64,000 nt of DNA from contig NW_020847110.1 in NCBI RefSeq assembly GCF_003704095.1, positions 1 to 64,000 of the forward strand, written 5' to 3'. This DNA comes from Pocillopora damicornis (lineage: Eukaryota). Shown here piece after piece: positions 14,614 through 15,456 of this stretch (the first letter of the stretch is position 1; each line of letters opens with the position of its first letter). Both the position numbers and the translations under genes were made by a program. The notes beneath the pieces were generated by a model, which did no database searches, was not told where the DNA came from, and saw nothing but the letters and a program-made list of their open reading frames with translations.

Positions 14614-15456
14614 TCAAGGGGCAAAAATACAATAAACAACATTTATGATTAGCATGATTTTTATATTTTTATGGGGCTCGGTGGTTTTGAGATCTCCATT
14701 TCTGTTACCGACGATGTCGTTTTTTGGGCCAAAAGCGGAAATCATATCATCCAAAGCTTTGAGAACTTGCTTTGTGGTTGGTTCGCCATCCCAGCAAACT
14801 CCGTCAAGGCCCACGCCTGTCAGTATGTCAGGGACATCGTTTACTAAAAAGCCTCCACTTACCATGAAAAATCCTTGAAGGTCGCATATCTGACGATAAT
14901 GGTTTTCCTTTGGATTCTCCATCATGTAACTCTTGATTTTTGACAGATCAGCGGCTGTTGTCGCTAATCCAGCTGTAATGGTGAAATTTTTTACGGCCTC
15001 AATCAGATCTTGTATTTTATTGTCAGAAATATGGTCTCGAACCTGCTTGAATTGTCCCTCTTTACGATCCACCCAGTGTTCAAGAAAACCAGTGCAGTTT
15101 AGACTAGATTCTTTTCCACATCTGACATCATCGATCGGAGGAGGCGATATCTGGACTATCGCAACTTTGCCTTCTTTATGGACTCTCTGCAAGTTATCGA
15201 TCTCTTCGTCAATAATTGTCGAGCAATTTTTCTCTCCGAACAATGGCCTCTGGCAGACAAGAAAGCCTACGCTGGATACACTCTTCATACGGCAAGCAAT
15301 CTTGTCTTCTCCTTCAGACGTCTCAGCGCAGAAAGTGTTGTAGTTAATGTTGGGCTTCACTTTATCGATCTCATCTCGGGCAGTCGCGAAGTCGTCTGCA
15401 AATGCCAAGGCTATCACGCCAGCAAAGAAACCCAAACCGAAGTAACATTTGTACAT
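14614..15456 (-). CDS. 280-aa secreted, probably GPI-anchored protein with an atypical kinase-like (HopBF1-like) domain
   Basis: Uninterrupted 843-nt ORF with signal peptide (cleavage AFA|DD after residue 20), hydrophobic C-terminal tail, 8 Cys in the domain and 3 N-glycosylation sequons. Kinase-type motifs EGEDK52, E85 helix, ICD192LQ-x6-G-x2-LVND207. The CDS is well supported; the family assignment comes from motif recall. Confidence 0.85.
   Translation of the reverse strand: MYKCYFGLGFFAGVIALAFADDFATARDEIDKVKPNINYNTFCAETSEGEDKIACRMKSVSSVGFLVCQRPLFGEKNCSTIIDEEIDNLQRVHKEGKVAIVQISPPPIDDVRCGKESSLNCTGFLEHWVDRKEGQFKQVRDHISDNKIQDLIEAVKNFTITAGLATTAADLSKIKSYMMENPKENHYRQICDLQGFFMVSGGFLVNDVPDILTGVGLDGVCWDGEPTTKQVLKALDDMISAFGPKNDIVGNRNGDLKTTEPHKNIKIMLIINVVYCIFAP

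Follow-up and report, generated by a model that had tools for sequence, protein, structure and literature searches.

The gene described here lies on the minus strand of a 64,000-nucleotide stretch of Pocillopora damicornis DNA (contig NW_020847110.1, positions 1 to 64,000; hereafter the window). It encodes a protein of 280 amino acids (aa), hereafter the query, which belongs to an undescribed exported kinase-like family within the superfamily of protein kinase-like (PKL) proteins. From its sequence and a structural model, we lean towards an exported, disulfide-braced minimal protein kinase that would use lumenal or extracellular ATP and would be surface-anchored in one coral orthologue group. 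An initial annotation had proposed a secreted, probably glycosylphosphatidylinositol (GPI)-anchored homolog of the bacterial effector kinase HopBF1 at this place. The gene and its product are delimited as follows.

14614..15456, minus strand: coding sequence of the putatively exported kinase-like protein, 280 aa plus stop, one coding exon (open reading frame (ORF), RNA contigs, single copy)
15397..15456, minus strand: predicted signal peptide, aa 1-20, with an A-F-A end followed by a conserved D-D-F start (hydropathy)
14728..15396, minus strand: kinase-like domain, aa 21-243, predicted minimal HopBF1-like fold with eight conserved cysteines (model)
15301..15303, minus strand: K52, an invariant lysine that follows G49 and opens strand beta-2; putative ATP-phosphate ligand (conservation, model)
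15202..15204, minus strand: E85 on helix 78-96; putative alphaC glutamate (conservation, model)
14875..14883, minus strand: D192-L-Q194; putative catalytic base and metal ligand (conservation)
14836..14838, minus strand: D207; putative metal-binding aspartate (conservation)
14617..14727, minus strand: GPI-signal-like tail, with a polar spacer (aa 244-263) and a hydrophobic terminus (aa 264-280) (hydropathy, family rows)

A kinase-like fold is virtually certain, judging from the AlphaFold2 model that was built with a 102-row family alignment. The mean predicted local distance difference test score (pLDDT) is 89.7 and the predicted template modelling score 0.81, with pLDDT values of 97-98 over residues 21-240. 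In a Foldseek search against the PDB, HopBF1 ranked first (E 1.8e-7 and 7.3e-7), followed by PRPK (2e-4), and VIA-align aligned 170 of 175 HopBF1 residues with Z 14.4, a root-mean-square deviation of 3.6 and 11% identity. A search independent of Foldseek among 48,161 representatives returned HopBF1 at Z 13.6, followed by Rio1 at 9.7, and listed POMK at 8.9 and the TRPM7 alpha-kinase at 7.9. The alignment with HopBF1 extends over residues 27-247 of the model and takes in 170-171 of 175-176 residues, at 10-11% identity. All 50 matches listed in each of three fold searches were kinases or kinase-containing complexes; structures of FAM20, PKDCC, DIPK and CotH were not among the matches listed, which does not exclude them. 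The independent ESM Atlas model of a divergent Acidobacteria member likewise resembled kinase-like families, with DUF6206, APH, Kdo and HipA-like clusters as matches (TM score 0.53-0.58); for the query, the Atlas gave no usable match and no model. A single-sequence fold of the Brenneria member reached a pLDDT of 32.8 and was not used. With HopBF1 as the top match in three structure searches, the HopBF1-like minimal kinase fold of the initial annotation is supported, and homology to HopBF1 holds only at the level of the fold; at the level of sequence, no similarity could be detected.

The putative active site is nearly invariant. Conservation was counted in an alignment of the query and 101 of 168 relatives, with near-duplicates and short fragments left out, over the rows that have a residue at the position. 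While the mean column identity of these 102 rows is 23%, K52 is kept in 91/92 rows, E85 in 91/95, D192 in 91/96, Q194 in 92/96 and D207 in 92/95, so the intact putative catalytic set proposed earlier extends through the family. The eight core cysteines (43, 55, 68, 78, 113, 121, 191 and 221) range from 91/96 rows (C191) to all rows. The asparagines of the sequons N77, N120 and N157 are poorly conserved (N in 23/92, 20/100 and 22/98 rows). The four most divergent rows retain six cysteines and all five putative catalytic residues. A loose G-x-x-K...E...D-h-Q-G...D spacing pattern was met in 9 of 20,000 shuffles of the protein versus 72 of 78 family rows. The gene is under purifying selection: the ratio of nonsynonymous to synonymous substitution rates (dN/dS) was 0.11-0.30 in all ten pairs among five coding sequences, and 0.29-0.30 in the two unsaturated pairs. 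We regard an active phosphotransferase as likely.

Export of the protein is very probable from its predicted features. Residues 6-20 are hydrophobic and end in A-F-A, and the A-F-A/D-D-F junction recurs in coral and bacterial relatives, in agreement with the signal peptide proposed earlier. None of the seven rows of the proteobacterial clade (four named, three labelled from locus context or tree position) lacks any of the eight cysteines or of the five putative catalytic residues, and each begins with a signal-like N-terminus. Export and the predicted disulfides thus predate any tuning in corals, and the earlier suggestion that a bacterial kinase was retooled with disulfides in the animal is not supported. 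The hydropathy profile of the query consists of the N-terminal signal, a polar spacer and a terminal hydrophobic stretch (residues 264-280), with no cytosolic tail; two further cysteines, C4 and C276, fall within the hydrophobic ends. Among 78 rows, a long tail with a hydrophobic end was found in 20: the stony-coral orthologue clade accounts for 18 of them, its full number of rows, and a soft coral for one, with one further row besides. No row labelled bacterial has such a tail, which makes it the one coral-specific feature here. In the remaining 58 rows the sequence stops at the end of the kinase domain or shortly behind it, or runs on into a polar tail, and these proteins look soluble from their sequences. 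A small-residue triplet lies 18-36 residues from the end in 19 of the 20 tailed rows, a pattern counted with no chance control. A GPI anchor is plausible for the orthologue clade (18/18 tailed), and for the present copy, which lacks the triplet, we consider it only slightly favoured.

The gene is transcribed. Its intronless 280-aa ORF is present on the minus strand with K52, E85, D192, D207, the sequons and the eight core cysteines at the positions given in the initial annotation. This stretch is contained in 19 runs of nine studies, with seven of the runs on record as RNA; expression level and strand cannot be read from these contigs. Contigs of three polyA/oligo-dT runs, each from a different study, extend over the ORF and its stop (in one run in two pieces). 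RNA was thus found for a gene whose lack of transcription the initial annotation had named as counter-evidence. Because the contigs run through the ORF and stop, the C-terminal tail lies within the transcript and is not an intron read-through. The following transcript parts were delimited.

15483..15563, minus strand: intron in the 5' untranslated region (UTR), 81 nucleotides (nt), GT..AG (RNA contig joints, splice sites)
15483..15617, minus strand: alternative donor giving a 135-nt 5' UTR intron (RNA contig joints)
15564..15978, minus strand: upstream non-coding exon region, 5' end undefined (RNA contig pieces)
13699..14613, minus strand: probable 3' UTR with ends that vary by run (RNA contigs to 13699, 13873, 14004, 14108 and 14225)

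The 81-nt joint occurs in all three recorded polyA/oligo-dT runs and the 135-nt joint in one of them; both are absent from a DNA-like run. Read on the minus strand, the intron boundaries are GT..AG, and the donor fits the consensus. No RNA contig covers 16244-16945, where the DNA-like run continues.

The intronless coding region and the bacterial relatives could also suggest that the assembly is contaminated with bacterial DNA or that the ORF is dead. This explanation is effectively refuted: the gene sits on a host contig with host G protein-coupled receptor (GPCR) genes around it, has 5' UTR introns and has a GC content of 0.43, with 0.44 at third codon positions (GC3), close to that of five adjoining host exons (0.42-0.47 and 0.44-0.50, respectively). 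In addition, orthologues occur in annotated records of Stylophora, Acropora, Oculina, Porites and Dendronephthya, and another coral-like locus has the same opsin neighbour. The orthologues include LOC111341241 of Stylophora and LOC114533505 of Dendronephthya. Two protein queries against the coral's own 234-Mb genome found the gene in single copy.

The family is spread over corals and a few bacteria. A HMMER search against 1.84 billion representatives returned 85 proteins at E<=0.001, and word-based searches for relatives returned 89 and 101. Coral members named there come from Stylophora pistillata, Acropora muricata, Oculina patagonica, four Porites species and Dendronephthya gigantea (several paralogues), and members from bacterial metagenome-assembled genomes (MAGs) from one Methylobacter and one Acidobacteria. 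The closest relative (80%) represents a Stylophora pistillata cluster. Among the named members, Anthozoa is the sole animal group, which does not imply absence elsewhere. The genomes of 185,579 prokaryote species were scanned by pattern, which gave 150 matches; four of them were confirmed (Methylobacter, Raoultella lignicola, Brenneria roseae and Erwinia sp.). Together with the Acidobacteria member, these are the bacterial relatives that the initial annotation had anticipated. Their occurrence is sporadic: one of 13 genomes of the genus Brenneria, and one of 401 in the order, which is the centre genome itself. Three of 16 metagenome loci are of higher GC or gene-dense and bacterial-like, including L011, which adjoins a glycerol-3-phosphate acyltransferase gene; the others are AT-richer and coral-like. 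None of 45 pattern matches in viral contigs was confirmed, and searches of plasmids with two bacterial members as queries found no family member.

No known family could be assigned by sequence. The query matched no Pfam family at E<=10, and FAM20, PKDCC, DIPK/FAM69, POMK and CotH were not matched among 27 members at E<=1. The vertically inherited secretory kinase families, which the initial annotation had named as the competing source of closest relatives (DIPK/FAM69, PKDCC), thus gave no Pfam match. NCBIfam gave no match and PHROGs weak short matches alone. Among PDB sequences, none was found at E<=10 for the query, for a 27-row profile or for member P0086, and two unrelated ones were found for P0083. 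A profile weighted to divergent members retrieved nine proteins, all inside the family, and did not reach HopBF1.

We regard gene transfer between bacteria and Anthozoa, in one direction or the other, as highly probable. The gene has the hallmarks of a transferred gene, being host-integrated, expressed, present in several anthozoans and provided with bacterial relatives. Trees were computed quickly for 78 rows and carefully for 24 and 21 rows restricted to named or context-labelled sequences, the 21-row tree additionally without P0033, P0086 and P0071. The proteobacterial clade is solid (99-100) and is placed among coral sequences, beside the group of the query, with support of 82, 82/87 and 86/90 in the three trees. 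Corals fell on one side in 0/200 bootstrap trees, and forcing them together costs 6.5 and 6.2 log units (approximately unbiased (AU) test, p-AU 0.060 and 0.047). Long branches meet in these trees. Given these and the borderline AU values, transfer is likely while its number and direction stay open. The initial annotation had envisaged an animal clade nested among bacteria. Its bacterial relatives and patchy Anthozoa/bacteria spread were found; the nesting is weak and runs the other way, with bacteria among corals.

Instead of one transfer into an anthozoan ancestor, the proteobacterial copies may have come from corals, or corals may have received the gene more than once, a scenario that we place somewhat short of even. 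The position of the proteobacterial clade within coral diversity in all three trees and the lack of a bootstrap tree uniting the corals argue for it, as does the identity of the query to proteobacterial members (39-42%), compared with 33-41% to some coral paralogues. It is weakened by the borderline AU values and meeting long branches, by the Acidobacteria MAG among the most divergent members, and by the sources of the proteobacterial members, which are plant-associated isolates and a Methylobacter MAG and not obviously from reefs.

In three Enterobacterales, the kinase-like gene ends a conserved island of ~22 kb (L006 9785-19901 with L003 1-6711, L008/L005 and L007/L004), present in Raoultella, Erwinia and Brenneria. 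The island also holds three paralogue-like genes of 120-158 aa, genes for proteins of ~1,200 and ~2,400 aa and a gene for a protein of 910-920 aa with a family 2 glycosyltransferase (GT2) domain. The two giant proteins had no Pfam or NCBIfam match in the parts scanned. The possibility that an extracellular contractile injection system surrounds the enterobacterial copies was not retained, as the upstream ORFs scanned gave no Pfam or NCBIfam support. The Methylobacter neighbours differ from this island: locus L002 (411-11660) encodes a serine carboxypeptidase S10, a 796-aa unassigned ORF, a beta-helix protein and a lipocalin-like protein, as well as a 137-aa ORF with a below-cut-off MakC/D match (E 5.7e-20).

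Several observations weigh against an exported, anchored protein kinase. The third strand of the model (63-68) ends at C68-Q69, and position 69, which is K in 60/92 rows, is Q in the query, so the family has no invariant beta-3 lysine and K52 is assigned as catalytic lysine by inference. K52 opens the second strand (52-57), after G49, which would place the invariant lysine like that of WNK or like the P-loop arginine of alpha-kinases. In the soft-coral paralogue P0033 (Dendronephthya LOC114538475), G49, E85 and D192 are replaced, and this copy is likely a pseudokinase on its sequence. A glycosyltransferase gene directly precedes the kinase-like gene in the three enterobacterial loci, pointing to a glycan substrate. 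The query has no small-residue anchor triplet, but N253-G-D in its place (again counted with no chance control), so its tail may be a short membrane anchor. On the side of the gene, the synonymous divergence is saturated in eight of the ten pairs used for dN/dS, the short side of the splice joints measures just 19-29 letters, and no joint is listed in four of four further runs whose RNA status is guessed; three of these four contigs retain the 5' UTR intron, and at the joint the fourth shows loose ends.

The missing beta-3 lysine would also fit a kinase-fold protein with another chemistry, such as an ATPase or a nucleotidyl-transferase, or a nucleotide-binding pseudokinase. The bacterial periplasm contains little free ATP, which counts in the same direction. 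AMPylation and glutamylation do occur on kinase-like folds (PMC10870513; here and below, statements taken from cited papers refer to the available parts of their text). Yet the lysine, the alphaC glutamate and both aspartates are kept in corals and in all 11 rows of the bacterial clade and divergent members, as would be expected of a phosphotransferase, and we judge another chemistry quite unlikely.

An exported kinase of glycans or small molecules, comparable to POMK or aminoglycoside phosphotransferases, might act on sugars of surface glycoconjugates or mucus. The start codon of the kinase-like gene overlaps the stop of the GT2 gene in Raoultella and Erwinia and lies 16 nt from it in Brenneria. 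Furthermore, the wide fold search ranked POMK fourth (Z 8.9), and the Atlas structure neighbours of P0086 include the APH and Kdo families. However, the three GT2 loci form one clade and one island, so that the adjacency counts as one event; there is no glycosyltransferase beside the gene at the Methylobacter, L010 and L011 loci, and the top structural match, by ~4 Z units, is a protein kinase. We therefore consider a glycan or small-molecule kinase unlikely and, provided that the enzyme is an active phosphotransferase, a protein substrate reasonably probable.

A narrower alternative is a weapon or regulator that, like HopBF1, phosphorylates a chaperone of the HSP90 family, either GRP94 of the endoplasmic reticulum (ER) or HSP90 in symbionts, prey or competitors. 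The predicted fold comes closest to that of HopBF1, which phosphorylates HSP90 (PMC9950578), and about two thirds of the family rows are without an anchor tail and could be released. Against this stand the 10-11% structural-alignment identity and ~50 extra residues relative to HopBF1, the cytosolic location of HSP90 versus the signal peptides and conserved cysteines of the family, and the lack of a delivery domain in the kinase-like protein. A target of the HSP90 family, GRP94 included, appears very improbable.

The exported minimal protein kinase that we favour would work as follows. The signal peptide would be cleaved after A20 as the protein enters export via the ER, and four predicted disulfides would brace the small domain. 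K52, in the glycine loop and strand beta-2, would pair with E85 of alphaC to hold ATP, Q194 and D207 would hold Mg or Mn, and D192 would serve as the catalytic base. The source of ATP may be the ER/Golgi lumen or release outside the cell, with secreted or cell-surface proteins as presumed targets. The family would already have been an exported, cysteine-braced enzyme in bacteria before it crossed between bacteria and Anthozoa, and the anchor tail would have been gained by one coral orthologue group.

Single members and the surroundings of the gene offered further observations. The locus number of P0033 is near those of two other paralogues. Member P0073 (374 aa) matches the family partially; behind this match lies an unrelated cysteine-rich domain that is possibly separately signalled. 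On a coral-like metagenome contig (L024 184-3312), a partial family match lies directly behind a pannexin-like/LRR/caspase gene, a possible immune context. In the window, the convergent neighbour of the kinase-like gene is the following.

11492..13368, plus strand: two-exon opsin-like GPCR gene (7tm_1 for the exons tested)

It is the second of four tandem two-exon opsin-like GPCR genes of the same orientation (plus strand; 5321-7632, 11492-13368, 26841-29199 and 39738-41720), with which the kinase-like gene stands tail-to-tail. Pfam confirmed 7tm_1, and just that, for the three opsin-like exons tested; the name opsin is based on a retinal-lysine motif. In metagenome locus L018, a family member and an opsin likewise stand tail-to-tail, and this opsin shares 70-75% identity with the second opsin of the window, so this position is likely common to more than one coral. 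Of the other 12 short loci, 11 had no opsin match and one a 19-residue match. A functional link between kinase and opsin was not retained, with adjacency alone seen and strong in one of 13 short loci. One RNA contig each of runs X5 and X11 (12548-15336) continues from the kinase-like gene into the final exon of the convergent opsin gene, which may reflect overlapping 3' ends or a merger of two transcripts. An intronless rhodopsin-class GPCR gene (7tm_1) lies at 50778-51791 on the minus strand. The DNA-like run covers the repeat region 16900-18600 at high depth; loose ends are numerous there and some pieces of RNA occur, and the region is probably a mobile or satellite repeat.

A full-text literature search, from which subscription papers are mostly absent, found no description of the family, and six accession numbers of two orthologue groups had no main-text occurrence. 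None of the 72 KINtaro families carries a name that points to the coral family in the available text of PMC10870513, with HOMD and TOXO compared by name only. The 41 coral transfers in the available text of PMC4878875 include no such kinase, three entries being merely 'predicted' or 'hypothetical' proteins, and the 126 coral transfers of a preprint (bioRxiv 10.64898/2026.05.06.723128, available text) may include this gene. The family falls outside the coverage of Pfam, NCBIfam and the KINtaro list. Few kinase families act in the animal secretory pathway and each of them changed views on biomineralisation or glycan biology; if our reading is true, an unrelated one is added, in reef-building corals. 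More tentatively, and on balance doubtfully, the family could comprise GPI-anchored coral ecto-kinases with a beta-2 lysine, four disulfides and the smallest known kinase fold, representing a further independent animal origin of extracellular phosphorylation, with more than one swap between bacteria and Anthozoa (possibly from corals to proteobacteria), an expansion of soluble paralogues in Porites and soft corals, and targets at the surface, in mucus, in the skeletal matrix or in microbes. The gene is also a case of bacteria-animal gene traffic of open direction. Since it is small and single-exon and has cultured bacterial relatives at ~40% identity, its activity, substrate and structure are directly testable.

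Among known systems, HopBF1 (Ewingella americana, PDB 6PWD/6PWG; Pseudomonas syringae) has the minimal fold predicted for the coral family, and nearly its whole chain aligns; in the coral family it gains a structural relative far closer than the solved structures met by the PDB search. It acts as a type III effector that phosphorylates cytosolic HSP90 (PMC9950578), and its family is PKLF000064 of KINtaro, which gathers members by phmmer at E 1e-4 (PMC10870513). On sequence, the coral family is not a member of this family, given the lack of a sequence match, the 10-11% structural identity and the signal peptide instead of type III delivery. The coral protein adds that signal peptide and eight cysteines, and HopBF1 lacks the GPI-like tail of the one coral clade. 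The coral family suggests that type III delivery is younger than the minimal fold.

The kinases of the animal secretory pathway arose independently several times (PMC9941534, in whose available main text the word GPI does not occur). FAM20, PKDCC/VLK, DIPK/FAM69 and POMK share a lumenal or extracellular location and cysteine richness with what is predicted for the coral family, but have no Pfam match to it, POMK being a far weaker fold match (Z 8.9), and the named distribution of the coral family (Anthozoa and bacteria) is unlike theirs. Alpha-kinases (PF02816; MHCK-A, TRPM7) share the D-h-Q-G motif followed by h-x-D-P, as seen in this coral's own alpha-kinases, and Arg592, the invariant basic residue that closes their P-loop (PMC4876393), is placed like K52. 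Unlike the coral family, they are cytosolic and keep an invariant beta-strand lysine. An origin from alpha-kinases was not supported, with no Pfam hit, an hhalign probability of 0.45%, Z 7.9 for the TRPM7 kinase and a best E of 1.3 for the hidden Markov model of the family on 350 translated segments of 10 alpha-kinase loci. In WNK, strand beta-2 supplies the catalytic lysine, but WNK is a full-size cytosolic eukaryotic protein kinase, unlike the putative minimal exported coral protein. CotH kinases, including the GPI-anchored CotH of Mucorales fungi, set a precedent for an exported atypical kinase of bacterial type at the surface of a eukaryote; they are a different family, with no CotH Pfam hit for the coral protein and a much smaller coral domain. 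CLUH, finally, is a eukaryotic protein with a pseudokinase domain for which HopBF1 is the closest structure (PMC10041065). It is cytosolic and multidomain and has lost the catalytic residues, which the coral family keeps.
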